Positions 5,398 through 61,795 of a stretch of 64,000 nucleotides of DNA are shown here, in pieces. The notes beneath the pieces were generated by a model. The model searched no databases. It was not told where the DNA came from and saw only the letters and a program-made list of their open reading frames with translations. Origin of the DNA: Escherichia coli (GTDB lineage: Bacteria; Pseudomonadota; Gammaproteobacteria; Enterobacterales; Enterobacteriaceae); assembly GCF_030384885.1 (NCBI RefSeq), contig NZ_CP128613.1; one strand, written 5' to 3'. Both the position numbers and the translations under genes were made by a program. How positions within the stretch are numbered: the first letter of the stretch is position 1; the number at the start of each line of letters is the position of its first letter.

Positions 5398-6963
5398 TTA
5401 TGCTGTTTTGGTGCGAATCAGGTAGTCAAAAGCACTCAGAGAAGCTTTGGCACCTTCGCCAGTGGCGATGATGATCTGCTTGTACGGAACCGTCGTACAG
5501 TCACCCGCAGCGAACACGCCTTTGACGTTGGTTTCGCATTTCGCATCAATGATAATCTCGCCCATGCGGTTACGTTCGACTGCGCCTTCGAGCCAGTTGG
5601 TGTTCGGCAGCAGACCAATCTGGACGAAAATACCGGCCAGTTCGATGTTGTGAATATCGCCGCTGACACGATCTCGATATTCCAGACCTACGACTTTGCT
5701 ACCGTCGCCTTTCACTTCCGTGGTTTGCGCATTCAGAATAATGTCGACGTTTTTCAGGCTGCGCAGTTTGTCCTGCAGAACCTGGTCGGCTTTCATTTCT
5801 GGCGCAAATTCCAGCAGCGTTACGTGCTCAACGATACCCGCCAGGTCGATTGCCGCTTCCACGCCGGAGTTACCGCCGCCGATAACCGCTACGCGTTTAC
5901 CTTTAAACAGCGGGCCGTCGCAGTGCGGGCAGTAGGTCACGCCTTTGGTGCGATACTGATCTTCGCCCGGAACGTTCATGTTGCGCCATTTTGCACCGGT
6001 CGCCACGATAATGCTGCGTGCTTTCAGTACCGCGCCAGAAGCTGTTTCAATCTGATGCAGGCCACCTTCAACCGCTGCCGGGATCAGTTTGCTGGCGCTC
6101 TGGCTGTCGATCACATCAACGTCGTATTCATCAACGTGAACTTTCAGCGCACCTGCCAGTTTCTGGCCTTCGGTCTTCGGTACAGAAATGTAGTTTTCGA
6201 TATCAACGGTATCGAGGATCTGACCACCAAAACGTTCGCCCATCAAACCAGTACGGATACCTTTACGTGCGGAGTAAATTGCTGCCGCTGCACCCGCCGG
6301 GCCGGAACCGACGATTAATACGTCATAAGCATCACGCTTGTTCAGCTCTTCTGCCGCACGTTTTTCCGCGCCAGTATCAATTTTGGCGACGATTTCAGTC
6401 AACGTCATGCGACCCTGACCAAACTCTTTCCCGTTTACGAACACTGCCGGAACGCCCATCACGTTGCGATCGGTGATTTCGTTCTGGAAGGTGCCGCCGT
6501 CAATTGCAGTGTGCTTGATGCGCGGGTTCAGTACGCTCATCAGGTTCAGCGCCTGCACCACATCCGGGCAGTTGTGGCAAGAGAGCGAGTAATAGGTTTC
6601 GAATTCAAAATCACCGTCAATATGGCGAATCTGCTCCAGCAGAGACTGCGCTTCTTTCGACGGATGACCACCGGTCCACAACAACGCCAGTACCAGCGAG
6701 GTAAACTCGTGGCCCAGCGGGGAACCTGCAAAACGTGGCCCCTGGTTGGAACCTGGGTTAGTGATCAGGAAAGACGGCTTACGCACCGGCAAGCTGTTAT
6801 CTTCTTTAAAGGTGACTTTGTCTGACAGTTCTGCGATTTCAGCCAACAGTTCCTTGATTTCTGCCGATTTAGCGCTGTCATCCAGCGTGGCAATTAACTC
6901 AACAGGCTTGGTCAATTTCTCAAGGTAAGCCTTGAGTTGAGTTTTCATATTTGTGTCGAGCAT
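5398..6963 (-). CDS. ahpF: alkyl hydroperoxide reductase subunit F (flavoprotein)
   Basis: ORF recognised as AhpF; start at MLDTNMKTQ (521 aa) supported by AGGAGA RBS; upstream in-frame ATGs at 6993 lack an RBS. Confidence 0.92.
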
Positions 6964-14599: not shown

Positions 14600-16705
14600 T
14601 TAGTGCGCGCCTTTCGCCTGCGCCTCGATCTCCTCGACATTTTCCGGCATTGGCTCATACGGCGTTTCTTTCGCCGTTGGCTTCGGATCTTTCAATGCTG
14701 CCAGTGCCGTCTTAATCGAGAACAGCGCCAGAACCACCACAACCACCATAAAGAAGATGGTTAATCCGGCATCCAGACGGTTGTTGAACACCAGTTGCGC
14801 CAGTTGTGACTCAGTATACTGCGACGGAATATTGCCGCTGTCGATCATTGCCTGGAACTTGTTAGCAATCGCCAGAAAACCGACTTTCGCATCCGGGCTA
14901 AACGCTTTCTGCCAGCCTGCGGTCAGGGTACAAATCAGCAGCCAGGCCGTTGGTACCAGCGCCACCCAGGCGTAACGTTGACGTTTCATCTTGAACAACA
15001 CCACGGCACAGAGCATCAGCGCCATCCCTGCCAGCATCTGGTTGGCAATACCAAACAGCGGCCACAGAGTGTTAATACCGCCCAGCGGATCGACCACGCC
15101 CTGATGCAGAAAGTAACCCCAAGCCAGCACGCACAGCGCCGTTGCCAGCAGGTTAGCAGGCAGTGAATCGGTCCGTTTCAGGCCCGGAGAAACCACGCCC
15201 AGCAGATCCTGCAACATAAAGCGCGCAGCACGCGTACCCGCATCCACCGCCGTCAGAATAAACAGTGCTTCAAACAGAATGGCGAAGTGATACCAGAACG
15301 CCACATCCATCATGCCACCCAGCGCGCCGTGCAGAATGTAGGCCATCCCCACCGCCAGGGTCGGCGCACCGCCCGCACGGGAAATGATCGACTGTTCACC
15401 CACTTCGCTGGCAATCTGATTTAACGTATCTGGCGTAATGCTAAAGCCCCAGCTACTCACTACCTGCGCAGCAGATGCCACTACATCCGCCGTCCCCGCC
15501 GGAGCCAGCACCGCCATCGGGCTGTTCATCGCGAAGTACACGCCCGGATCGATGATACAGGCAGAAACCAGTGCCATAATCGCCACGAAGGATTCCATCA
15601 ACATCCCGCCGTAGCCGATAAAGCACGCCTGACCTTCGTTCGCCAGCATCTTCGGTGTGGTGCCGGAAGAGATCAGCGCATGGAAGCCAGACACCGCGCC
15701 ACAGGCGATAGTAATAAACAGGAACGGGAACAGATTACCGGTCCATACCGGGCCAGTGCCATCTACAAACTTGGTCAGCGCAGGCATGGTCAGCGTCGGA
15801 CGCATAATCAAAATGCCTACCGCCAGACCGACGATAGTCCCGATTTTCAGGAAGGTAGAGAGGTAGTCACGCGGAGCCAGCAGCAACCACACCGGCAGAA
15901 CCGCCGCCACAAAACCGTAACCCACCAGCATCCAGGTCAGCTGCACGCCGGTAAAGTCAAAGTACGGTGCCCAGGTCGGGCTTTCTGCCACCCAGCCGCC
16001 AGAGATAATGGCGAAAATAAGGAATACCAGGCCAATCACCGACACTTCCCCAATGCGGCCTGGACGCAGATAGCGCAGGTAAATCCCCATGAACAGCGCC
16101 AGCGGAATGGTGAACGCAACGGTATACGTTCCCCACGGGCTATGAGTCAGGGCTTTCACCACGATCATCGCCAGTACTGCAAGAATAATGACCATGATCA
16201 TAAAGCAGGCCACCAGCGCAATCACCCCGGCGGTTGGCCCCATCTCTTCTTTAACAAGCTCGCCCAGCGAGCGACCGTCACGGCGCGTGGAAACAAACAG
16301 CACCATGAAATCCTGCACCGCACCGGCGAGAACCACCCCGGCAAGTAGCCAGATCATCCCCGGTAGGTAGCCCATTTGCGCTGCCAGTACCGGCCCCACC
16401 AACGGGCCTGCTCCGGCAATGGCCGCAAAATGGTGACCGAACAGCACTTTCTTGTCCGTCGGCACATAGTCCAGCCCGTCGTTATGGCGCACCGCTGGCG
16501 TCATACGCGTCGGGTCAACCGCCAATACATTTTTGGCGATATAAAGACCATAAAAACGGTAAGCGATCAGATAGATACAGACCGACGCCACCACAATCCA
16601 CAGCGCGTTGATCTGTTCCCCACGATTTAAAGCAATGTATCCCAGAGCAAATGCTCCCATTACAGAGAGCACTGTCCAGACGAGGTATTTCCCTGATTTG
16701 TTCAT
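14600..16705 (-). CDS. cstA: carbon starvation protein A (peptide/pyruvate transporter family)
   Basis: 701-aa polytopic membrane protein recognised as CstA. Confidence 0.92.
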   Translation of the reverse strand: MNKSGKYLVWTVLSVMGAFALGYIALNRGEQINALWIVVASVCIYLIAYRFYGLYIAKNVLAVDPTRMTPAVRHNDGLDYVPTDKKVLFGHHFAAIAGAGPLVGPVLAAQMGYLPGMIWLLAGVVLAGAVQDFMVLFVSTRRDGRSLGELVKEEMGPTAGVIALVACFMIMVIILAVLAMIVVKALTHSPWGTYTVAFTIPLALFMGIYLRYLRPGRIGEVSVIGLVFLIFAIISGGWVAESPTWAPYFDFTGVQLTWMLVGYGFVAAVLPVWLLLAPRDYLSTFLKIGTIVGLAVGILIMRPTLTMPALTKFVDGTGPVWTGNLFPFLFITIACGAVSGFHALISSGTTPKMLANEGQACFIGYGGMLMESFVAIMALVSACIIDPGVYFAMNSPMAVLAPAGTADVVASAAQVVSSWGFSITPDTLNQIASEVGEQSIISRAGGAPTLAVGMAYILHGALGGMMDVAFWYHFAILFEALFILTAVDAGTRAARFMLQDLLGVVSPGLKRTDSLPANLLATALCVLAWGYFLHQGVVDPLGGINTLWPLFGIANQMLAGMALMLCAVVLFKMKRQRYAWVALVPTAWLLICTLTAGWQKAFSPDAKVGFLAIANKFQAMIDSGNIPSQYTESQLAQLVFNNRLDAGLTIFFMVVVVVLALFSIKTALAALKDPKPTAKETPYEPMPENVEEIEAQAKGAH

Positions 16706-50497: not shown

Positions 50498-51181
50498 ATG
50501 AAACTGTTGATTGTCGAAGATGAAAAGAAAACCGGCGAATACTTAACCAAAGGGTTAACCGAGGCCGGTTTTGTGGTTGATTTGGCCGATAACGGGCTGA
50601 ATGGATATCATCTGGCGATGACAGGTGATTATGACCTGATAATCCTCGATATTATGCTGCCGGACGTGAACGGCTGGGATATTGTGCGCATGTTGCGTTC
50701 CGCCAATAAAGGGATGCCGATTCTGTTGCTTACCGCGCTTGGCACCATTGAACATCGCGTCAAGGGGCTGGAGCTGGGAGCGGATGACTATCTGGTGAAG
50801 CCGTTCGCTTTTGCTGAACTGCTGGCACGGGTGCGCACTCTACTGCGGCGCGGGGCGGCGGTAATTATCGAAAGTCAGTTTCAGGTTGCCGATTTAATAG
50901 TTGATCTGGTCAGCCGCAAAGTCACCCGCAGCGGCACGCGCATCACTTTGACCAGTAAAGAATTTACTCTGCTGGAGTTTTTCCTCCGCCATCAGGGTGA
51001 AGTGCTGCCCCGCTCGCTTATCGCCTCGCAGGTGTGGGACATGAATTTCGACAGCGACACTAACGCTATTGATGTGGCGGTGAAGCGGCTACGCGGCAAA
51101 ATCGACAATGATTTCGAGCCAAAGTTAATTCAGACCGTACGCGGCGTAGGTTACATGCTTGAGGTGCCGGATGGCCAGTAA
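50498..51181 (+). CDS. cusR: copper-responsive two-component response regulator (OmpR family)
   Basis: 227-aa ORF recognised as CusR; GGAGGA RBS. Confidence 0.93.
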
Positions 51182-52619
51182 GCCGTTTCAGCGCCCGTTT
51201 TCGCTGGCAACCCGCCTGACCTTTTTTATCAGCCTTGCCACCATTGCAGCGTTTTTCGTCTTTGCCTGGATCATGATCCACTCGGTAAAAGTGCATTTTG
51301 CCGAGCAGGATATTAATGATTTAAAAGAGATTAGCGCCACATTCAGGCGTGTTCTTAATCATCCCGAAGAGACACAAGCCCGACGCTTAATGACGCTGGA
51401 AGATATCGTCAGTGGTTATTCCAACGTGTTGATTTCTCTGGCAGATAGCCACGGTAAAACGGTGTATCACTCCCCCGGTGCGCCGGATATCCGCGAGTTT
51501 GCACGTGATGCCATACCCGATAAAGACGCTCGGGGCGGCAAGGTGTATCTCCTTTCCGGCCCGACAATGATGATGCCAGGCCACGGTCACGGGCATATGG
51601 AACACAGCAACTGGCGGATGATTAACTTGCCGGTTGGCCCGTTGGTGGACGGCAAACCGATTTATACGCTCTACATCGCGCTGTCTATCGATTTTCATCT
51701 TCATTACATTAATGATTTGATGAATAAACTTATTATGACCGCATCGATCATCAGCATCCTGATCGTCTTTATCATGCTGTTGGCGGTACATAAAGGCCAC
51801 GCGCCAATTCGCAGCGTCAGCCGTCAAATCCAGAACATTACCTCGAAAGATCTCGACGTTCGCCTTGACCCGCAGACCGTGCCGATTGAGCTGGAACAGC
51901 TGGTACTGTCGTTCAACCATATGATCGAGCGTATTGAGGATGTCTTTACCCGCCAGTCCAATTTCTCAGCGGATATCGCTCACGAAATTCGTACGCCAAT
52001 TACGAATCTCATTACGCAAACGGAAATCGCCCTCAGCCAGTCGCGCAGCCAGAAGGAGCTGGAAGATGTGCTCTACTCTAATCTCGAAGAGCTGACGCGA
52101 ATGGCGAAAATGGTCAGCGATATGCTGTTTCTCGCTCAGGCCGATAACAACCAGTTAATCCCCGAAAAGAAAATGCTCAACCTGGCGGATGAAGTTGGCA
52201 AAGTGTTCGATTTTTTCGAGGCGTTAGCGGAAGATCGCGGCGTAGCACTACGGTTTGTTGGCGACAAATGTCAGGTTGCGGGCGATCCGCTGATGCTGCG
52301 TCGGGCGCTAAGCAACCTGCTTTCTAACGCTCTGCGTTATACGCCGCCCGGAGAGGCAATTGTAGTGCGCTGCCAGACGGTCGATCACCAGGTGCAAGTT
52401 ACCGTCGAAAACCCCGGTACGCCCATTGCGCCCGAGCATTTACCGCGTTTGTTTGACCGTTTCTACCGCGTTGATCCTTCCCGCCAGCGAAAAGGTGAAG
52501 GTAGCGGCATTGGGCTGGCGATAGTGAAATCGATTGTTGTCGCGCATAAAGGCACGGTTGCAGTAACGTCAGATGCGCGGGGAACAAGGTTTATGATCAA
52601 ACTACCGGAGAAAGGTTAA
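51171..52619 (+). CDS. cusS: copper-sensing two-component histidine kinase
   Basis: ORF recognised as CusS; start placed at ATG 51171 ([10 protein letters not shown]), overlapping cusR end; the ORF-track start at 51159 is TTG. Confidence 0.88.
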
Positions 52620-53283
52620 TTAGTTAGTTCAAACTCAAAGAGTGATGTATCGCCTTCTGTTATTATTTATCAATAAAACAGGGAAGACCTTATTGGTCGT
52701 CTGAAATCGACGGTTATTCATTTTCGGATATTTACGAGATATTTAGATATGCAATTTAATCAAATTCGTGTTTCTACCAATTGTAGAGCACAATGCTATT
52801 ACTAAATTTTCATCACTATAAAAGAATCGGCTATAATATAAAGCGCAGTCAGGCATCATTAATCTCTATATTATTCACACAATCTATTTATCAAGTGAAT
52901 TTGATAAATTCCTAATTTAAAATATTCACTATTAAGCCAGCGTCTAACGACGTTAAGATGGCAATGTGCAGATCATGTTATCAGGGTGGGGCGGTAGCGT
53001 ATATTCCTTATACAAACCATCATTCATTTCAATAATGTTTATTGAGTTATTTATTATTGTGAATAAAAAGACATTACAAATATTGGTTTGACTTTGCATA
53101 TCAGGTGTTTTTTTTGTTACTCGATGTAATATACGAGCCTGTCCTTAATAACATCGTGAACCCGTCAGTTGAGTTTGTGATTATTTTGTTGAGTCAACAG
53201 CCCCCTGTTTCTCTGAAGTAAAATCCCGGACAAAATCATCACATAACCATGACACTTTTCTGATATTCCCCGGTAACGCCTGA

Positions 53284-54534
53284 AGCCTGCCCGCTTACCT
53301 GAAGGCGCAGTCTGCGGGCAGGCACCGGATAAGTGAAGAGACTGACCAGTATGCCGGAGGCCACCGGCTGAAACAGGCCGGAAACACGCAGTATGACTAT
53401 GACGCCGCAGGCCGGATGGTCAGCCGCACCAGGCACCGTGACGGCTACCGCCCGGAAACAGAGCGGTTCCGGTGGGACAGCCGGGACCAGCTGACCGGGT
53501 ATTGCAGCGCACTGGGGGTGCAGTGGGAATACCGCCACGACGCCAGCGGCAGACGGACGGAAAAACGCTGCGACCGGAAGAAAATCCGTTTTACGTACCT
53601 GTGGGACGGCGACAGTATTGCGGAAATGCGGGAATACCGGGATGATAAACTGTACAGCGTACGGCACCTGGTGTTTAACGGCTTTGAGCTGCTGAGTCAG
53701 CAGTTCAGCCGGGAAAGGCAGCCGCATCCGTCCGTGGCCCCGCAGTGGGTGACGCGGACGAGCCATGCGGTAAGCGACCTGACAGGCCGCCCGGTGATGC
53801 TCTTTAACAGTGAAGGTAAAACCGTCTGGCGGCCGGGACAGACCAGCCTGTGGGGGCTGGCACTCAGCCTGCCCGCAGACACCGGCTACCCGGACCCGCG
53901 CGGGGAACTGGACCCGGAAGCCGACCCCGGCCTGCTGTATGCAGGACAGTGGCAGGATGCAGAATCCGGGCTGTGCTATAACCGGTTCCGGTACTACGAG
54001 CCGGAAACCGGGATGTACCTGGTGAGTGACCCCCTGGGGCTGGCCGGGGGGGAGCAGACTTACCGGTATGTGCCTAATCCATGTGGGTATGTTGATCCTT
54101 TGGGATTAGCAACGTGTCCCATAATCAGACAGCGGGTGCTTGCTAACCTCGAAGCCAGTCGGGCAGCAAGAGTTACATCAAATTTTGGTAAGCCTCTGGT
54201 TCAGGGAAATAAAACGATTGGCGATAAAGTAAGGGATATAATTGCCAAAGAGAGGGGAACCACTCTAATTGAACAAAATTATAGAGTGACAGGAGGATTA
54301 AGGCGTATTGACGTTGTTGATGGAGTAACGGGTATTGAATCTAAAGTCGGTCGAACAGGGATAACTGCCCGAGTACGGCAAGAGGTAGCCCGTGATATTA
54401 AGATTTTGAGAAGTGGGCAACTTGATCAAATTGAATGGGTGTTTACAAGAAGTCCAACTACAGGGAAGATTGGGCCAACTAAACCACTTGAAGATCTGTT
54501 AAATAAACATGGTATACCGATTATTTATCGATAA
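53284..54534 (+). pseudogene. 5'-truncated Rhs remnant: ~275 aa of Rhs core C-terminus plus a ~141-aa polymorphic C-terminal toxin domain (orphan rhs-CT)
   Basis: open frame from 53284 with YD-repeat-like residues and the terminal DPxGL(x)nDPLGL motif; C-terminal domain begins at 54109 where GC content drops; first ATG at 53416; the >1000-aa N-terminal part of a full Rhs is absent. Confidence 0.7.
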
Positions 54535-54545
54535 GGAGTGATAGT

Positions 54546-55103
54546 GTGAAACTCAAACCGATTGGTGATTTTTTAATTAATAGTGGGTTCGTGAAAAATA
54601 GTGACACTGACTTTTATAAAGTGCATGATAAGTTTGTATACTGTATAAATTTTCAAAAAAAGAGCACGGGTGATATTTTTTTTATAAACACAGGTGTTCA
54701 TCCTATATTCGAAGGTTTTTGCAATGAACTACCAACAAAAGAAATAGATTGCTACATTCGTAATCGTGTGTGTGATGGACTAAGTATATCTTTGCTGAAT
54801 TCTTTTGAAGGTGATGAATTTGTTATCAATGAGATAAAGGATAAAGCGTTTTGTTTTTTTGAATACTTTGATTCATTGAATAAAATATTCGATAGTATTC
54901 GTGTTGTCGATATTGAAGAGAGAAATATTTGCGATGAGCTAAGTAATGTAAGTAGCGTAAGATTAGCTTTGATGTGTATGAACTACCAATATGAGAAAAA
55001 AAATTTGGGACTTGCTTCAGATTTTGCGAACTATGGTCTTGCTATATCTAGAGGCCCGGTACCGAAAAAAGCATTTAAGGATATGATAAAAAAAATAGAG
55101 TGA
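54546..55103 (+). CDS. putative cognate immunity protein of the Rhs-CT toxin
   Basis: 185-aa AT-rich ORF starting with GTG 7 nt after an AGGAG RBS and 12 nt after the rhs-CT stop; typical position and composition of Rhs immunity genes; no recognisable domain. Confidence 0.5.
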   Translation: MKLKPIGDFLINSGFVKNSDTDFYKVHDKFVYCINFQKKSTGDIFFINTGVHPIFEGFCNELPTKEIDCYIRNRVCDGLSISLLNSFEGDEFVINEIKDKAFCFFEYFDSLNKIFDSIRVVDIEERNICDELSNVSSVRLALMCMNYQYEKKNLGLASDFANYGLAISRGPVPKKAFKDMIKKIE

Positions 55104-55109
55104 TATCTA

Positions 55110-55425
55110 ATCCGCTGTAATGCCAATTGTCTGTGTACAGAGAAGGTTAACGGCCTGGATGAGACAATCGTCTACACATGGGACGCTGCAGGCCGCCTGG
55201 CAGAAATCATCGCCCCGGAAGGGAAAACGCAGTACGCGTATGACAAATCCGGCAGGCTGACGGGTATCTTCAGCCCGGACGGCATATCACAGCGCACCGG
55301 CTACGACGAACGCGGGCGGGTGAATGTCGCCACGCAGGGCAGACGGGCCATTGAATACCACTACCCAGGGAAAGATCACGTAACGCTGCTTTTTTGTACT
55401 AAACAATTCGAATTTTATGTTTAAA
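55110..55425 (+). pseudogene. internal Rhs core fragment (YD-repeat segment) without start codon
   Basis: translates to ...VYTWDAAGRLAEIIAPEGKTQYAYDKSGRLTGIFSPDGISQRTGYDERGR..., i.e. Rhs YD repeats, ending in a short divergent tail; GC-rich. Confidence 0.5.
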
Positions 55426-55509
55426 AATTGAGATATTCCTCATTACCTGAAGCTGTTTTTTATTGCTTATACATGATCAAATACTCCTTACATAATTAAG
55501 GAGAACAAA

Positions 55510-56643
55510 ATGGAACTTAAAAAATTGATGGAACATATTTCTATTATCCCCGATTACAGACAAGCCTGGAAAGTGGAACATAAATTATCGGACATTCTAC
55601 TGTTGACTATTTGCGCCGTTATTTCGGGTGCAGAAGTTTGGGAAGATATAGAGGATTTTGGGGAAACACATCCCGATTTTTTGAAGCAATATGGTGATTT
55701 TGAAAATGGTATTCCTGTTCACGATACCATTGCCAGAGTTGTATCCTGTATCAGTCCTGCAAAATTTCACGAGTGCTTTATTAACTGGATGCGTGACTGC
55801 CATTCTTCAGATGATAAAGACGTCATCGCAATTGATGGAAAAACACTCCGGCATTCTTATGACAAGAGTCGCCGCAAGGGAGCGATTCATGTCATTAGTG
55901 CGTTCTCAACAATGCACAGTCTGGTCATCGGACAGATCAGGACGGATGAGAAATCCAATGAAATTACAGCTATCCCAGAACTTCTTAACATGCTGGATAT
56001 TAAAGGAAAAATCATCACAACTGATGCGATGGGTTGCCAGAAAGATATTGCAGAGAAGATACAAAAACAGGGAGGTGATTATTTATTCGCTGTAAAAGGA
56101 AACCAGGGGCAGCTAAATAAAGCCTTTGAGGAAAAATTTCCGCTGAAAGAATTAAATAATCCAGAGCATGACAGTTACGCAATGAGTGAAAAGAGTCACG
56201 GCAGAGAAGAAATCCGTCTTCATATTGTTTGCGATGTCCCTGATGAACTTATTGATTTCACGTTTGAATGGAAAGGTCTGAAGAAATTATGCGTGGCAGT
56301 CTCTTTTCGGTCAATAATAGCAGAACAAAAGAAAGAGCCAGAAATGACGGTCAGATATTATATCAGTTCTGCTGATTTAACCGCAGAGAAGTTCGCCACA
56401 GCAATCCGAAACCACTGGCACGTGGAGAATAAGCTGCACTGGCGTCTGGACGTGGTAATGAATGAAGACGACTGCAAAATAAGAAGAGGAAATGCAGCAG
56501 AATTATTTTCAGGGATACGGCACATCGCTATTAATATTTTGACGAATGATAAGGTATTCAAGGCAGGGTTAAGACGTAAGATGCGAAAAGCAGCCATGGA
56601 CAGAAACTATCTGGCGTCAGTCCTTGCTGGGAGCGGGCTTTAG
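55510..56643 (+). CDS. H-repeat-associated protein (ISAs1-family transposase)
   Basis: 377-aa ORF recognised as YhhI/YdcC/YbfD-type H-rpt protein; AAGGAGAA RBS; sits downstream of the Rhs fragments as in Rhs elements. Confidence 0.85.
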
Positions 56644-56681
56644 TGAGTAGGCCACCGGAACCTCCCCGACAGCCTCTCGCA

Positions 56682-56715
56682 GAACCGTACGTGAAACTCT
56701 CGCTTCATACGGCTC
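56682..56715 (-). ncRNA. group II intron catalytic domain V
   Basis: minus-strand sequence GAGCCGUAUGAAGCGAGAGUUUCACGUACGGUUC matches the domain V consensus (AGC triad, GUAU...ACGUAC helix) just 3' of the RT stop. Confidence 0.75.
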
Positions 56716-56718
56716 CCG

Positions 56719-58041
56719 TCAGGCAAACGCGCTTCCTGGTCCTGCTTTCCAGTGGGCAAACAACTCCGGCTTCTCTTTTGACAGCCTTTCCATTAGCTGA
56801 CACGCCTTCGTCTTTCTATACCGCAGGGTTTTATATTTCTTTCTCGCCCACGCAATCAGCGTCAGATTAATATATCTGCATACTTTCTTCATCGCTGATT
56901 TGTGGTATCTCGCGTAATAATTCAGCCACCCCGATATTATCGGATTCAGCCACTTCGCAATATCTTCGAGACTCATCTCCACCCTGCGTCTGATCCACAG
57001 TTTCCTGAGTTTTCCAATCATGCCTTTCTGCGCACGGTTACTCGCCGCCGGGCTGAAACTCGTAAAGAGGTTCCCCCGCCGGTGGTTACGTGCTCTTCGC
57101 GCTCTGAACGTATACCCCAGAAAATCAAACTGCACTGTTTCATGGTTCGCCTGTCGTTCGCTGTCTTTGCAGTAAACTATTTTCGTTTTCTCCGGATGTA
57201 ATTCCAGTCCACATTCCTGAAAACGTTTTGCCAGCTTATTCAGTAATTCCTCTGCCTGTTGTTTACTGCCACAATGAATTAATCCATCATCTGCATAACG
57301 GCACCAGGGAATTTCCGGATAATGTAACGTCAGCCATTTATCAAACACATAGTGCAGAAATAAATTCGCCAGTACCGGGCTGATGACTCCACCCTGTGGC
57401 GTACCTTTATTTCTTTCCTTCAGTGTTCCATCCGGCATCTGCACCGGCGCTGTCAGCCAGCGGCGAATAGACAGTCTTACCCATTTATCCGCACAATGTT
57501 TATCTACTGCCCTGAGTAATAAATCGTGGGGGATATTATCGAATAACCCTTTAATATCAAACTCAAGACACCAGTCGTATTGCCAGCAACGTTTTCTGGT
57601 GACTGCTATTGCATCCAGCGCTGATTTTCCATGCCGGTATCCGTATGAATCATTCAGGAAATAACGCTCCACTAATGGTTCAAACGTTACCAGCACCGTC
57701 ATCTGCGCTATTCGATCGCTTACTGTCGGTATTCCTAAAAGTCTTTTGCTGCCATCCTTCTTCGGAATTTCCACCGCACGCACTGGCGGCGGCATCCAGC
57801 TTCCCGACGATAACCTGTTCCAGATTTTGTACAGATTTCCTTTCAGATCCCGCTCAAAATCTTTCAGCGTCTGGTTATCCACTCCGGCAGCTCCGGCATT
57901 CGCCTTTATCCGCCGGTACGCTTCCACCACATGCAATTTACTGACCTGAAACGGTTTTGTCTGTTCACACACAGCCTCCTCCTGCCTACAGTTGGGCTGT
58001 GATGCAGACTGCCCGACGCTGTCCCTTCGCTCCACGTTCAT
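56719..58041 (-). CDS. group II intron-encoded reverse transcriptase/maturase
   Basis: RT motifs including GAAGVD, GTPQGGVISP and YADD; start placed at MNVERRDS (about 440 aa); the 505-aa ORF to 58236 probably over-extends into intron domains I–III. Confidence 0.82.
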   Translation of the reverse strand: MNVERRDSVGQSASQPNCRQEEAVCEQTKPFQVSKLHVVEAYRRIKANAGAAGVDNQTLKDFERDLKGNLYKIWNRLSSGSWMPPPVRAVEIPKKDGSKRLLGIPTVSDRIAQMTVLVTFEPLVERYFLNDSYGYRHGKSALDAIAVTRKRCWQYDWCLEFDIKGLFDNIPHDLLLRAVDKHCADKWVRLSIRRWLTAPVQMPDGTLKERNKGTPQGGVISPVLANLFLHYVFDKWLTLHYPEIPWCRYADDGLIHCGSKQQAEELLNKLAKRFQECGLELHPEKTKIVYCKDSERQANHETVQFDFLGYTFRARRARNHRRGNLFTSFSPAASNRAQKGMIGKLRKLWIRRRVEMSLEDIAKWLNPIISGWLNYYARYHKSAMKKVCRYINLTLIAWARKKYKTLRYRKTKACQLMERLSKEKPELFAHWKAGPGSAFA

Positions 58042-58543
58042 TACAAACGCTTCCTCACTACTACGAACAGCTCTGCCCCGGTTTCGCACATCGATACTCT
58101 CATACTCATAATTTCGGTTATTTGTATTTCTCTCTTGACATTGCGACGACCGGTTCCCGTAGTTCCTGCAAAGAGCCCGATACAGCGTCATGCCTGCTAT
58201 ACACCGGACATCATTCACGCAGCATTCGGAATTCACCCGTAAATTAATCCCGGCGGTATCACGAAACCTCCGGTTTTGATGTCACTTAGGACTAACGACG
58301 TTTCAACACAGGTTCGGGTTTACTCATCTCACTGTATCTCACATAGGATCAGATCTCGTCTGATCGTTCCCCCTGCGCTCACTACCATGGCTCTTTACCA
58401 CAGCAGCCGGGGTTGTTTGGGACCGACTTCCGACAGCAGATCCCGGTGGGCCTGCCACCATCTCTTCACAAGCTTATGCTTATTACATGCAAAACGTCCC
58501 GTTTTGCATCTTTGTGCCTACGGCACACCGTAATCTTTCCCTG

Positions 58544-59300
58544 TGTCATTAGTGCGTTCTCAACAATGCACAGTCTGGTTATCGGACAGATCAAGACGGA
58601 TGAGAAATCCAATGAAATTACAGCTATCCCTGAACTTCTTAACATGCTGGATATTAAAGGAAAAATCATCACAACTGATGCGATGGGTTGCCAGAAAGAT
58701 ATTGCAGAGAAGATACAAAAACAGGGCGGTGATTATTTATTCGCTGTAAAAGGAAATCAGGGGCGGCTTAATAAAGCCTTTGAGGAAAAATTTCCACTGA
58801 AAGAATTAAATAATCCAGAGCATGACAGTTACGCCATTAGTGAAAAGAGTCACGGCAGAGAAGAAATCCGTCTTCATATTGTTTGCGATGTCCCTGATGA
58901 ACTTATTGATTTCACGTTTGAATGGAAAGGTCTGAAGAAATTATGCGTGGCAGTCTCCTTTCGGTCAATAATAGCAGAACAAAAGAAAGAGCCAGAAATG
59001 ACGGTCAGATATTATATCAGTTCTGCTGATTTAACCGCAGAGAAGTTCGCCACAGCAATCCGAAACCACTGGCACGTGGAGAATAAGCTGCACTGGCGTC
59101 TGGACGTGGTAATGAATGAAGACGACTGCAAAATAAGAAGAGGAAATGCAGCAGAATTATTTTCAGGGATACGGCACATCGCTATTAATATTTTGACGAA
59201 TGATAAGGTATTCAAGGCAGGGTTAAGACGTAAGATGCGAAAAGCAGCCATGGACAGAAAGTATCTGGCGTCAGTCCTTGCGGGGAGCGGGCTTTCGTAA
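58544..59300 (+). pseudogene. 5'-truncated second copy of the H-repeat transposase gene
   Basis: near-identical to residues ~129-377 of the 55510-56643 ORF from [11 protein letters not shown] onward; lacks the N-terminal third. Confidence 0.8.
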
Positions 59301-59557
59301 TCTTTCCCTGCCCTGCTCACCTCCTCCAGGCACTTCCACAACATGATGACCTGATCGGTTGCCGCCTATCCTCCTCACTATGACCTTCACCTCCGCGCTT
59401 TTGCCTACATCCTGCACAATCGGCAACTTTTATAACCAGTGTAAAAATAACGTGCCGCAATAATCCTACCTATTAATGATAAAAAGCTGTCACAATTCAT
59501 AAAAAACTTTAATATACGCCACCCTAAACATAACCAGCGTTAATGTAAGGTTTTTGT

Positions 59558-61795
59558 GTGGACTGGCTTCTTGATGTTTTTGCAACCTGGCTATATGGCT
59601 TAAAAGTAATCGCGATAACGTTAGCGGTCATCATGTTCATCAGCGGGCTGGACGATTTTTTTATTGATGTCGTCTACTGGGTACGCCGCATTAAACGCAA
59701 GTTGAGTGTTTATCGCCGCTACCCGCGAATGAGTTACCGCGAACTGTATAAACCAGATGAAAAACCGTTAGCGATTATGGTTCCGGCGTGGAATGAAACG
59801 GGCGTCATCGGCAATATGGCCGAGCTGGCGGCGACCACGCTCGACTATGAAAACTATCATATCTTTGTTGGCACCTACCCCAACGACCCCGATACTCAGC
59901 GTGATGTTGACGAAGTGTGCGCTCGCTTCCCAAACGTGCATAAGGTAGTCTGCGCGCGTCCTGGCCCCACCAGCAAAGCCGACTGCCTGAACAACGTGCT
60001 GGACGCCATCACCCAGTTTGAGCGTAGCGCCAATTTCGCTTTTGCTGGTTTTATTCTGCATGACGCCGAAGACGTAATTTCACCGATGGAATTGCGTCTG
60101 TTCAACTATCTGGTCGAGCGTAAAGATCTGATTCAGATCCCGGTATACCCATTCGAACGCGAATGGACGCACTTCACCAGCATGACTTACATTGATGAGT
60201 TTTCAGAACTGCATGGCAAAGATGTTCCGGTGCGTGAAGCCCTCGCCGGACAAGTGCCCAGCGCAGGCGTCGGTACTTGTTTCAGCCGCCGCGCCGTGAC
60301 CGCACTGTTAGCTGACGGTGACGGTATTGCTTTCGACGTGCAGAGTCTTACTGAAGATTACGACATTGGTTTCCGCCTGAAAGAAAAAGGTATGACGGAA
60401 ATTTTTGTCCGTTTTCCGGTGGTGGACGAAGCCAAAGAACGCGAGCAGCGTAAATTTTTACAGCACGCGCGGACGTCAAACATGATCTGCGTGCGCGAAT
60501 ATTTCCCCGATACCTTTTCGACGGCGGTTCGACAAAAGTCTCGCTGGATCATCGGCATTGTTTTCCAGGGCTTTAAAACCCATAAATGGACCTCCAGCCT
60601 GACGCTGAACTACTTTCTCTGGCGCGACCGCAAAGGGGCAATCAGTAACTTTGTCAGCTTCCTCGCGATGCTGGTGATGATCCAGCTTTTGCTGTTACTG
60701 GCGTATGAAAGTTTGTGGCCCGATGCCTGGCATTTCCTTTCTATTTTCAGCGGCAGCACATGGTTAATGACCCTGCTGTGGCTAAACTTTGGTTTGATGG
60801 TTAACCGCATCGTGCAGCGGGTGATTTTTGTCACTGGCTACTACGGTCTGACGCAGGGGCTGCTATCTGTCCTGCGTCTTTTCTGGGGCAACCTGATTAA
60901 CTTCATGGCCAACTGGCGCGCGTTAAAACAGGTGCTTCAACACGGCGATCCACGTCGCGTCGCGTGGGATAAAACAACGCATGACTTCCCCAGCGTCACT
61001 GGCGATACCCGCTCGTTGCGCCCGTTAGGTCAAATTCTGCTGGAAAATCAGGTCATCACTGAAGAACAACTCGATACGGCACTGCGTAATCGTGTCGAAG
61101 GTCTACGCCTGGGCGGTTCAATGCTGATGCAGGGGCTGATTAGCGCCGAACAGCTGGCACAGGCACTGGCAGAGCAAAACGGCGTGGCGTGGGAGTCCAT
61201 CGATGCCTGGCAGATCCCTTCTTCGCTGATTGCCGCGATGCCGGCCTCCGTGGCGCTGCATTATGCGGTGCTACCGCTGCGTCTGGAAAATGATGAGTTA
61301 ATTGTCGGCAGTGAAGATGGTATTGACCCGGTTTCGCTGGCAGCCCTGACGCGTAAAGTTGGACGCAAAGTGCGTTACGTCATTGTTCTGCGAGGACAAA
61401 TTGTCACCGGATTACGTCACTGGTATGCACGCCGACGCGGTCACGATCCGCGGGCAATGTTGTACAATGCGGTTCAGCATCAGTGGCTCACGGAACAGCA
61501 GGCCGGTGAAATCTGGCGGCAATATGTGCCGCATCAGTTCCTGTTCGCCGAAATACTGACCACGCTCGGTCATATTAATCGTTCAGCAATTAACGTGTTG
61601 TTATTGCGCCATGAACGCAGTTCTCTGCCGCTCGGCAAGTTTTTGGTCACCGAAGGCGTTATCAGCCAGGAAACGTTGGATCGCGTCCTGACAATTCAAC
61701 GCGAATTACAAGTTTCGATGCAATCACTATTACTCAAAGTAGGTTTAAACACAGAACAGGTTGCGCAACTGGAGTCCGAAAATGAAGGAGAATAA
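59558..61795 (+). CDS. nfrB: bacteriophage N4 adsorption protein B (family-2 glycosyltransferase, c-di-GMP-binding)
   Basis: 745-aa ORF recognised as NfrB; apparent GTG start. Confidence 0.92.
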   Translation: MDWLLDVFATWLYGLKVIAITLAVIMFISGLDDFFIDVVYWVRRIKRKLSVYRRYPRMSYRELYKPDEKPLAIMVPAWNETGVIGNMAELAATTLDYENYHIFVGTYPNDPDTQRDVDEVCARFPNVHKVVCARPGPTSKADCLNNVLDAITQFERSANFAFAGFILHDAEDVISPMELRLFNYLVERKDLIQIPVYPFEREWTHFTSMTYIDEFSELHGKDVPVREALAGQVPSAGVGTCFSRRAVTALLADGDGIAFDVQSLTEDYDIGFRLKEKGMTEIFVRFPVVDEAKEREQRKFLQHARTSNMICVREYFPDTFSTAVRQKSRWIIGIVFQGFKTHKWTSSLTLNYFLWRDRKGAISNFVSFLAMLVMIQLLLLLAYESLWPDAWHFLSIFSGSTWLMTLLWLNFGLMVNRIVQRVIFVTGYYGLTQGLLSVLRLFWGNLINFMANWRALKQVLQHGDPRRVAWDKTTHDFPSVTGDTRSLRPLGQILLENQVITEEQLDTALRNRVEGLRLGGSMLMQGLISAEQLAQALAEQNGVAWESIDAWQIPSSLIAAMPASVALHYAVLPLRLENDELIVGSEDGIDPVSLAALTRKVGRKVRYVIVLRGQIVTGLRHWYARRRGHDPRAMLYNAVQHQWLTEQQAGEIWRQYVPHQFLFAEILTTLGHINRSAINVLLLRHERSSLPLGKFLVTEGVISQETLDRVLTIQRELQVSMQSLLLKVGLNTEQVAQLESENEGE

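Follow-up and report, generated by a model that had tools for sequence, protein, structure and literature searches.

Remains of a T6SS Rhs effector island, probably decayed in place, between cusS and nfrB of Escherichia coli

The junction between cusS and nfrB in Escherichia coli is catalogued as Rhs "position 4" (Table 3 in Jackson et al., 2009; PMC2935791). Among 5,426 complete E. coli genomes the site is empty in 2,328, including K-12, in which the two genes are spaced by 149 bp, while in 2,386 cusS is followed by a full leader that is contiguous with vgrG. The stretch of DNA analyzed here, 64,000 nucleotides of contig NZ_CP128613.1 (assembly GCF_030384885.1) and called the window in the following, carries accessory DNA at this junction, and its flanks align both to K-12 and to island-bearing genomes, which confirms the location between cusS and nfrB. 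Measured against the empty site, the accessory DNA extends over 52607–59408 (about 6.8 kb): at the left end the final few codons of cusS, from about 52607, are replaced and are of the island type rather than the K-12 type, and the right end stops 149 bp short of nfrB. A preliminary description of this DNA had assumed a short K-12 gap, which is correct, and had placed an insert of ∼6.9 kb, foreign to K-12-like genomes, at 52620–59557; the insert is indeed at the junction and the K-12-like sites are empty, but its bounds have to be moved to those given above. The locus is a known, catalogued Rhs locus, real but ordinary, an occupied site being found in roughly half of E. coli. A literature search for vgrG together with cusS and rhs turned up nothing useful.

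Coordinates, GC content and profile matches show all of the components that had been listed beforehand, from the AT-rich stretch through the partial H-repeat, in the order given. The intron, which had been listed between two H-repeats, is present as well but is seated inside the first of them, 15 bp from its right terminus. The features of the interval and its flanks are:

51171–52619, plus strand: cusS, the left flanking core gene (coordinates transferred from the 2013C-4282 locus annotation)
52620–53295, plus strand: AT-rich leader, equivalent to the cusS–vgrG intergenic region of the intact island; 34% GC, without a long ORF
53296–53297, no strand: deletion junction with a TA microhomology of 2 bp (blastn coordinates and junction alignment)
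53296–54108, plus strand: orphan Rhs core tail with YD repeats; 63% GC; its translation matches Pfam RHS_repeat and RHS and NCBIfam Rhs_assc_core (1e-18)
54109–54534, plus strand: Rhs C-terminal toxin domain (CT), 141 aa (54109–54531) and a stop codon; predicted PD-(D/E)xK nuclease; 42% GC
54546–55103, plus strand: candidate immunity gene, intact; 185 aa, GTG start, 31% GC; Pfam DUF4304, 4.9e-9
55104/55112–55365, plus strand: Rhs core scrap with YD repeats (254 bp), cut by the ISAs1 insertion; 88–92% identity to internal core segments of 2013C-4282 and of loci L003 and L006
55366–58543, plus strand: ISAs1-family insertion sequence (H-rpt, ISEc1-like), copy A; NCBIfam transpos_ISAs1 (NF033564), 3e-124
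56642–58528, minus strand: group II intron, assigned to E.c.I9, 1,887 nt, inside copy A and antisense to the transposase gene
56719–58041, minus strand: ltrA, reverse transcriptase/maturase of 440 aa; NCBIfam group_II_RT_mat (TIGR04416), 4.6e-128, 427 bits (cut-off 300)
58544–59310, plus strand: 5′-truncated ISAs1, copy B, equivalent to copy A positions 525–1276; 98.3% identity to 55890–56641
59311–59408, plus strand: island right-end flank, missing from the empty site; 86–88% identity to the equivalent position in loci L006, L015, L008, and L009
59409–61795, plus strand: native upstream region of nfrB (149 bp) and nfrB itself (59558–61795), the right flanking core DNA; aligns with the empty sites L005 and L018 from 59409 on

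Strain 2013C-4282 carries a complete island at the same site, with the same leader, a main Rhs protein of 1,601 aa containing prePAAR/PAAR and, distal to the island's main part, exactly the content of the window: orphan Rhs-CT, immunity gene, core scrap, ISAs1, and nfrB. Both loci are 99.9% (52000–53297) and 100% (53296–60200) identical on the two sides of the one gap between them, which measures 8,947 bp, so that the junction in the window fuses position 6431 of the 2013C-4282 locus to position 15379. The missing segment comprises vgrG (TIGR03361, 6.6e-188), the DcrB/DUF1795 chaperone gene (PF08786, 1.7e-27), the main rhs encoding the prePAAR/PAAR effector (prePAAR_I and PAAR_motif), the immunity gene of that effector, and the 5′ portion of the first orphan rhs. 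Neither vgrG nor the chaperone gene is found in the window, and both are present at the homologous place in 2013C-4282, within the gap. The leader is retained except for its final 66 bp, which include the vgrG ribosome-binding site; it is 99.9% identical to positions 5754–6431 of the 2013C-4282 locus and about 85% identical to the common allele (loci L002, L003, and L006), and the leader/vgrG allele of the window is a rare one, matched at 99% or more in only one complete genome. Since the window differs from 2013C-4282 only by the 8,947-bp deletion, being otherwise 99.9–100% identical, the locus is read as decayed in situ. The preliminary description had left open a decayed or a relocated island, of which the former holds and the latter is not needed, and its view that a distal Rhs part remains here without a main rhs or vgrG is borne out by the genome comparison, in which 2013C-4282 holds a full rhs at this junction. 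We consider it very probable that the interval is the in situ wreck of a T6SS effector island at Rhs position 4, the distal tail of which was left after the deletion. The opposite direction, a full island arising by insertion into a window-like ancestor, was rejected, as the complete leader runs straight into vgrG in the 2,386 genomes, under either leader allele.

The exact junction of the window occurs in no other genome of the 5,426-genome collection, outside of which the source genome lies, and therefore rests on one assembly; when metagenomes at large were scanned for the pattern of leader-N(0-30)-TACCTGAAGGCGCAG junctions, there were 0 matches. This private junction, together with the repetitive nature of Rhs cores and ISAs1 copies, well-known trouble spots in assembly, would fit a full island in the source strain that was collapsed by the assembler. 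However, the unique leader joins the core with only 2 bp in common, which leaves no repeat to collapse across, the part comprising ISAs1, intron and ISAs1 matches an independent complete genome base for base, and similar vgrG-less alleles are known from other complete genomes, all of which makes an artefact very improbable.

The same island has decayed independently in other lineages, namely in A3019, AR_0061, BKQWHE, NCCP12480, and TUM12355. Three vgrG-less alleles, those of the window, NCCP12480, and TUM12355, share the core breakpoint nucleotide (GGC/TACCTGAAGG) and differ in leader allele, in the left breakpoint, with a spread of 24 bp, and in the downstream CT module. A leader broken at almost the same place is found in RhsE of K-12 (yncG–pptA, Jackson position 6), where a vgrG-type leader, 90.7% identical to 52885–53280 of the window (about the last 400 bp of the leader), likewise abuts a 5′-truncated rhs core; as in the window, an immunity-like gene (ydcD) comes next, along with a pair of H-rpt/ISAs1 copies. 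RhsE differs from the window in its chromosomal site, in belonging to another core subfamily without a nucleotide match to the window core, in its core breakpoint, and in having no intron. The leader end and the core at GGC/TACCTGAAGG might form a recurrent, mechanistically favored deletion pair that disarms vgrG-Rhs islands and parks orphan modules behind a vgrG leader, a generalization that we regard as rather unlikely. In the common allele an imperfect homology of 14 nt (CAGTTGTACGGTAC versus CAGTTGTGGCTAC) could explain how the TUM12355 junction arose, but not how that of the window did.

The single core start nucleotide of these three alleles could also resemble a cassette boundary, and Rhs C-terminal tips and orphan modules are described to swap between loci (PMC2935791), which would fit an orphan CT/immunity cassette that was acquired or relocated next to the leader in a lineage that never had the full island. 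Against this stand the identity to the full island, 100% along 6.9 kb of its distal part and 99.9% in the leader, the full leader–vgrG arrangement as the majority state in both leader alleles, and the orphan modules of full islands, which start elsewhere than at that nucleotide. We hardly give credit to such a relocation and retain decay in place. As a separate point, TACCTG was considered as a general left boundary of orphan cassettes and was rejected, the orphans of 2013C-4282 and O157 beginning 1,014 bp and 219 bp upstream, respectively.

Only 271 core codons are left in the orphan Rhs tail, which is without its native start and ends in the PxxxxDPxGL core-end motif (YVPNPCGYVDPLGL). An open frame extends from 53284 to 54534, with an in-frame stop at 53281 and the first ATG at 53416, and Pfam and NCBIfam profiles revealed no PAAR domain in the translated Rhs core of the window. 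At the boundary of core and CT the GC content drops from 63 to 42%. The residues D68, E77, and K79, as well as E55, are invariant across 26 CT sequences, giving a conserved D...(D/E)xK pattern, and the predicted order of the core elements, alpha-beta-beta-beta-alpha-beta, corresponds to a restriction-endonuclease fold. The CT is without a match in Pfam or NCBIfam and could not be assigned to a described Tox-REase family, its homologues carry no precomputed Pfam domain, and a search of PDB sequences gave only chance matches with E of 0.1 or worse. With the Tox-REase families, the CdiA-CT of EC869, and TseT it has in common the alpha-beta-beta-beta-alpha-beta core with the invariant D...ExK, the C-terminal place on a delivery protein, and a small adjoining immunity gene. 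The surviving orphan toxin is predicted to be a PD-(D/E)xK DNase that is missing the start codon, PAAR, and the greater part of the Rhs shell. No full-length Rhs bearing this CT was seen in E. coli, the module being orphan again wherever it was examined, and the same CT is also 5′-truncated in other lineages.

The DUF4304 ORF starts 11 bp 3′ of the CT and accompanies it in all of 114 genomes; its product is 100% identical to WP_000769434.1 of 2013C-4282. Compared with AR_0067, dN/dS is 0.29 for this gene and 0.37 for the CT, and the junction of core scrap and ISAs1 that follows is the same in AR_0067. The DUF4304 gene is a candidate immunity gene and was most likely kept against relatives that still fire this toxin; what counts against this rationale of immunity to armed kin is that no full-length Rhs with this CT was seen in E. 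coli, the attacker thus being hypothetical. One could also regard the remnant as a working toxin–immunity pair, an addiction or defence module in which a leader promoter would drive the Rhs fragment from the ATG at 53416 together with the immunity gene: the frame is open, the catalytic residues are preserved, with a dN/dS of 0.37 that speaks for purifying selection, and the deletion sets the module directly behind the vgrG leader. However, the fragment has neither a recognizable ribosome-binding site nor a native start, for export it has neither PAAR nor an N-terminal shell, a fusion to upstream sequence is ruled out by the in-frame stop at 53281, and the CT is 5′-truncated in other lineages, too. 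Promoter-like sites are at background level: a promoter/terminator scan of 52500–55600 found 11 of them compared to 6.5 ± 2.5 expected, which is near chance, and such scans are uninformative in AT-rich DNA. A working pair is thus improbable, and a remainder of the decayed island is preferred. Orphan modules of this type are reportedly also found in Salmonella Typhimurium (Koskiniemi et al., 2014), where rhs-orphan, a 5′-truncated core tail with CT and immunity gene, lies downstream of the main rhs; they are said to be silent alone and to become usable after recombination with the main core. Unlike there, the locus in the window has no main rhs, and reactivation would need recombination with an rhs elsewhere in the genome.

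The H-rpt end of the interval consists of two ISAs1 copies. Copy A contains a DDE-type transposase ORF (55510–56643; 414 bits against a cut-off of 70 for NF033564) and starts with a left inverted repeat of 15 bp (55366–55380, CAGGGAAAGATCACG); its body continues up to 56641 and is followed by the intron and by the displaced right inverted repeat at 58529–58543, which, as that of copy B at 59296–59310, reads CAGGGAAAGATTACG (15 bp) in reverse complement. No direct repeat was found on either side of copy A, and this lack of a target-site duplication is consistent with later recombination or deletion. The left junction of copy A and the right junction of copy B, the latter contiguous with the nfrB flank, are both ancestral and common to other islands. 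Identity to the ISAs1 that other islands carry at this site is 97.3–98.3% for copy A and 96.9–98.1% for copy B, overlapping ranges that do not discriminate the resident copy.

The intron has its true ends at 58528 and 56642 and is flanked by ...GGGCTTT and CGTAATCTTTCCCTG of ISAs1. Its domains V/VI (56642–56717) match Rfam RF00029 with 62.8 bits (gathering score 40) and D1–D4 match RF01999 at 58342–58459 with 93.1 bits (gathering score 36), and the TIGR04416 match spans residues 37–403 of the 440 in LtrA, leaving no room for an endonuclease domain. The 5′ end, GTGTG, directly follows the inverted repeat, the intron-less target can be rebuilt exactly from copy B, and the ISAs1 inverted-repeat target would be CAGGGAAAGATYACG^. 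A candidate EBS1, CGUGAU at intron nucleotide 266, pairs with AUCACG or AUUACG; for EBS2 there is no convincing candidate, the best 7-nt match pairing in part with the non-conserved flank. E.c.I9 is reported to home into Rhs insertion sequences (ISEc1-5), right after the 15-bp ISAs1 inverted repeat as in the window, and its relics E.c.I9-tr1 and -tr2 have been described (Leclercq and Cordaux, 2012; PMC3522654). The assignment made here is by relics that match these descriptions and not by a reference intron sequence: 5′ relics of 193 and 159 nt in Rhs regions are 99% identical to the 5′ end of the window's intron, and they show the same junction of inverted repeat and intron, as does the copy in FCI56. 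These relics and the FCI56 copy sit at the left inverted repeat, whereas the intron of the window is full-length and occupies the right inverted repeat, in antisense orientation to the transposase gene. A copy covering at least 80% of the intron is present in only 83 of the 5,426 genomes. Searching the literature for group II introns in H-rpt, H-repeat, or ISAs1 by those terms yielded nothing useful.

In the intact island, of which 2013C-4282 is an example, the leader is followed by vgrG and the DcrB/DUF1795 chaperone gene; then come the class I prePAAR/PAAR-Rhs toxin and its immunity gene, the orphan Rhs-CT with the DUF4304 immunity gene, and finally the core scrap and the H-rpt, up to nfrB. 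In the lineage of the window, one illegitimate deletion of 8,947 bp at the TA microhomology would have fused the leader to the mid-core of the orphan rhs, leaving the locus unable to load a toxin onto the VgrG spike. The H-rpt end was presumably remodeled separately from the deletion, in an order of events that we infer: an ISAs1 already bearing E.c.I9 at the homing site of its right inverted repeat may have inserted into the resident ISAs1 or recombined with it. This would have produced a complete copy with the intron inside, behind which the 3′-terminal 767 bp of the resident ISAs1 remain.

All remaining parts are known kinds of element, and in annotation the label for the interval should be that of a degraded T6SS Rhs effector island (Rhs position 4) instead of a new element, with the strain scored as one that has lost the effector but retains a single orphan immunity gene. 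The full-length and apparently intact E.c.I9 lies within the right inverted repeat of an ISAs1 element that seems to have moved with the intron aboard. Of specialist interest is the orphan CT family, which would represent predicted PD-(D/E)xK toxins without a Pfam model that are partnered with a DUF4304 immunity protein.

The accessory DNA lies between cusS and nfrB, in a region that is collinear with that of K-12 but runs in the opposite direction. The preliminary description gave a short cusS–nfrB gap for K-12, and the spacing measured there is 149 bp only. Compared with the empty site of strain RM14723, homology ends at ~52606 and restarts at 59409, so that the accessory DNA amounts to ~6.8 kb; it also replaces the last few cusS codons. 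All components named in that description were found, in the order stated.

Features of the cusS–nfrB site
50498-51181, plus strand: cusR
51171-52619, plus strand: cusS
53416-54534 (frame open from 53284): orphan Rhs tail ORF, a 5'-truncated rhs core tail with RHS/YD repeats and an Rhs-associated core domain (Pfam; NCBIfam TIGR03696, 1e-18; translation), followed by the C-terminal toxin domain (CT)
54546-55103: immunity candidate, a DUF4304 protein in the canonical immunity position
55104-55365: core scrap, with YD repeats on translation and an 88-92% match to internal core sequence
55510-56643: ISAs1-family transposase ORF
56642-58528, minus strand: group II intron with domains I-IV and V/VI (Rfam), encoding a 440-aa reverse transcriptase/maturase
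59558-61795, plus strand (as cusS): nfrB

The Rhs-associated core domain of the orphan tail terminates in YVPNPCGYVDPLGL. Segment-wise GC content is strongly mosaic along the interval (leader 34%, Rhs core tail 63%, CT 42%, small ORF 31%, core scrap 59%, ISAs1 40%, intron 49%).

Among 5,426 complete E. coli genomes a single near-identical relative was found, strain 2013C-4282, which carries the full island (locus L004). By local blastn, window 52000-53297 corresponds to L004:5134-6431 at 99.92% and window 53296-60200 to L004:15379-22283 at 100%, with a junction overlap of 2 bp (TA). What sets the window apart is only the absence of L004:6432-15378 (8,947 bp).

Content of the lost segment in 2013C-4282
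final 66 bp of the leader
vgrG (TIGR03361, 6.6e-188)
DcrB-family gene of the DUF1795/Eag chaperone class (PF08786, 1.7e-27)
1,601-aa Rhs with class I prePAAR and PAAR motifs
immunity ORF of the 1,601-aa Rhs
approximately the first 1,014 bp of the orphan core

Since the missing vgrG-side segment is known from 2013C-4282, the AT-rich stretch of the window that contains no long ORF is the conserved cusS–vgrG leader; it is ~85% identical to the common leader allele, and the leader of K-12 RhsE is 90.7% identical to its last 400 bp. This comparison supports the earlier reading as the distal part of an Rhs element devoid of vgrG and full rhs, and what remains here is the distal part of a complete T6SS effector island, decayed in situ. 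The deletion also created a 9-bp inverted repeat, CCTGCCCGC ... GCGGGCAGG, with a 19-nt spacer astride the junction (window 53277-53329), one arm being leader-derived and the other Rhs core-derived.

The leader and vgrG allele of the window/2013C-4282 lineage (L004 6019-7400) is ~91.8% identical to a paralogous vgrG locus of many genomes but only ~86-87% to the common cusS-locus allele, which may reflect earlier exchange between Rhs loci. From ybcH to citR, window and K-12 (locus L018) are collinear, at an identity of only 90-98% (94-96% across most of the ent/fep/cus region), and near-identity at the island is limited to one complete genome, 2013C-4282; the source thus seems to belong to a divergent E. 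coli lineage that has been little sampled. The window has three tandem copies of the K-12 hokE segment (L018 20076-20467) (37053-37443, 37555-37944 and 38058 to ~38450; period ~503 bp, 94.6-95.9% identity to K-12), and the IS421/IS186-type element neighbouring hokE in K-12 is absent from the window.

The nfrB/cusS site is listed as conserved Rhs position 4 (Jackson et al., 2009; PMC2935791). An empty junction was found in 2,328 of the 5,426 genomes, K-12, BW25113 and DH1 included, so these K-12-like genomes do not share the insert; cusS–leader–vgrG is intact in 2,386 and the ISAs1–nfrB right end is present in 2,462. A full rhs gene occupies this site in 2013C-4282, and O157:H7 carries a complete island, although with a different orphan, a zincin toxin. 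Independent decay of the island is frequent: in A3019, AR_0061 and BKQWHE only a vgrG stub (174-345 bp) is left, joined to core fragments, and in NCCP12480 and TUM12355 vgrG is entirely absent. The CT/DUF4304 module of the window is present in 114 genomes, at ~92.7% identity in 113 of them and at 100% in 2013C-4282 only. In AR_0067, the one module-bearing genome inspected, it is again the final orphan, followed by core scrap and ISAs1. Relative to the AR_0067 copy, the CT has a dN/dS of 0.37 and the candidate immunity gene one of 0.29; thus both frames are maintained.

In the window, NCCP12480 and TUM12355 the leader is joined to the core tail at the identical core nucleotide, after ...GGC and before TACCTGAAGGCGCAG, which is a codon boundary. 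The three alleles differ in leader allele and downstream toxin, their left breakpoints are spread over 24 bp, and the core copy involved is orphan 1 in the window, the main rhs in NCCP12480 and another orphan in TUM12355. The breakpoint shared by the three vgrG-less alleles reads GGC/TACCTGAAGG; in K-12 RhsE the homologous leader breaks off no more than ~16 bp from where it does in the window. The positions compared are window 53295/53296, L007 ~7390, L008 ~7405 and L011 ~3392. For the TUM12355 junction, an imperfect homology of 14 nt between leader (CAGTTGTACGGTAC) and core (CAGTTGTGGCTAC) in the common allele would be an explanation, and the NCCP12480 type could be derived from that junction by a 17-bp secondary deletion; at the window junction TA is the only shared sequence. 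A start of orphan cassettes at this point was rejected, as in 2013C-4282 and O157 the orphans begin 1,014 and 219 bp further upstream, and a metagenome scan for leader–core junctions of this kind found none. Because the alleles were found by searching with the window's own junction, ascertainment is biased and we treat the shared breakpoint as a curiosity rather than a finding.

At the nfrB side, the H-repeat, group II intron and partial H-repeat of the preliminary description are all present, and the junction sequences place the intron within the first ISAs1 copy (copy A, 55366-58543) instead of free-standing beside it. An uninterrupted ISAs1 right end has the sequence ...GGGCTTT CGTAATCTTTCCCTG, which the 5'-truncated copy B shows at 59289-59310. 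Copy A has the intron precisely between these two parts, with GGGCTTT ending at 56641 and CGTAATCTTTCCCTG occupying 58529-58543. Reading the minus strand across it gives CAGGGAAAGATTACG^GTGTGCC...CTCACT^AAAGCCC. The intron therefore lies 15 bp inside the ISAs1 right end, antisense to the transposase gene, which loses its last residue only. Strain FCI56 carries the same intron, at 96% identity, 3' of the left inverted repeat (IR) CAGGGGAAGATCACG, in sense orientation. A plausible EBS1 (CGUGAU, intron nt 266) is complementary to the IR end; no EBS2 was located in the intron. A copy with at least 80% coverage occurs in only 83 of the 5,426 genomes. About 2,300 complete E. coli genomes carry a 5' relic of 208 or 174 nt, comprising a lone ISAs1 IR and the first 193 or 159 intron nt (99% identical to the window's intron), directly followed by a complete ISAs1. 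At L013 3001-3209 and L014 3001-3175, beside other Rhs loci, relics are fused to the left IR of a complete ISAs1. This arrangement suggests that an intron, once homed into an older IS end, was cut short by repeated insertion of ISAs1 or by adjacent deletion. Relic lengths and Rhs context agree with E.c.I9-tr1 and -tr2, and E.c.I9 is reported to target Rhs IS (Leclercq and Cordaux, 2012; PMC3522654); we therefore call the intron a probable E.c.I9.

The right IR of copy A adjoins position 525 of copy B (58544-59310); copy B and the corresponding part of copy A share 98.3% identity. The left junction of copy A with the core scrap is common to AR_0067, and the right junction of copy B with the nfrB flank to many islands. 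In the simplest history, whose order of events we infer, an ISAs1 loaded with the intron would have inserted into a resident ISAs1 copy, and the duplicated 5' 524 bp would then have recombined, collapsing the left part.

Overall, the site holds a decayed version of an E. coli Rhs/T6SS island that is already catalogued and very common. All component elements are of known kinds; new are only this particular deletion allele and a CT family without a Pfam model. As vgrG, chaperone, PAAR domain, N-terminal shell and start codon are all lacking, the locus is unable to deliver its toxin, and the in-frame stop at 53281 precludes fusion with anything upstream. Scanning 52500-55600 for promoters yielded 11 candidate sites, with 6.5 ± 2.5 expected, which is close to background for such AT-rich DNA. 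From established knowledge of orphan Rhs modules, its residual function is likely immunity conferred by the DUF4304 gene, and the module may be a reservoir for recombination with rhs genes at other loci of the genome.
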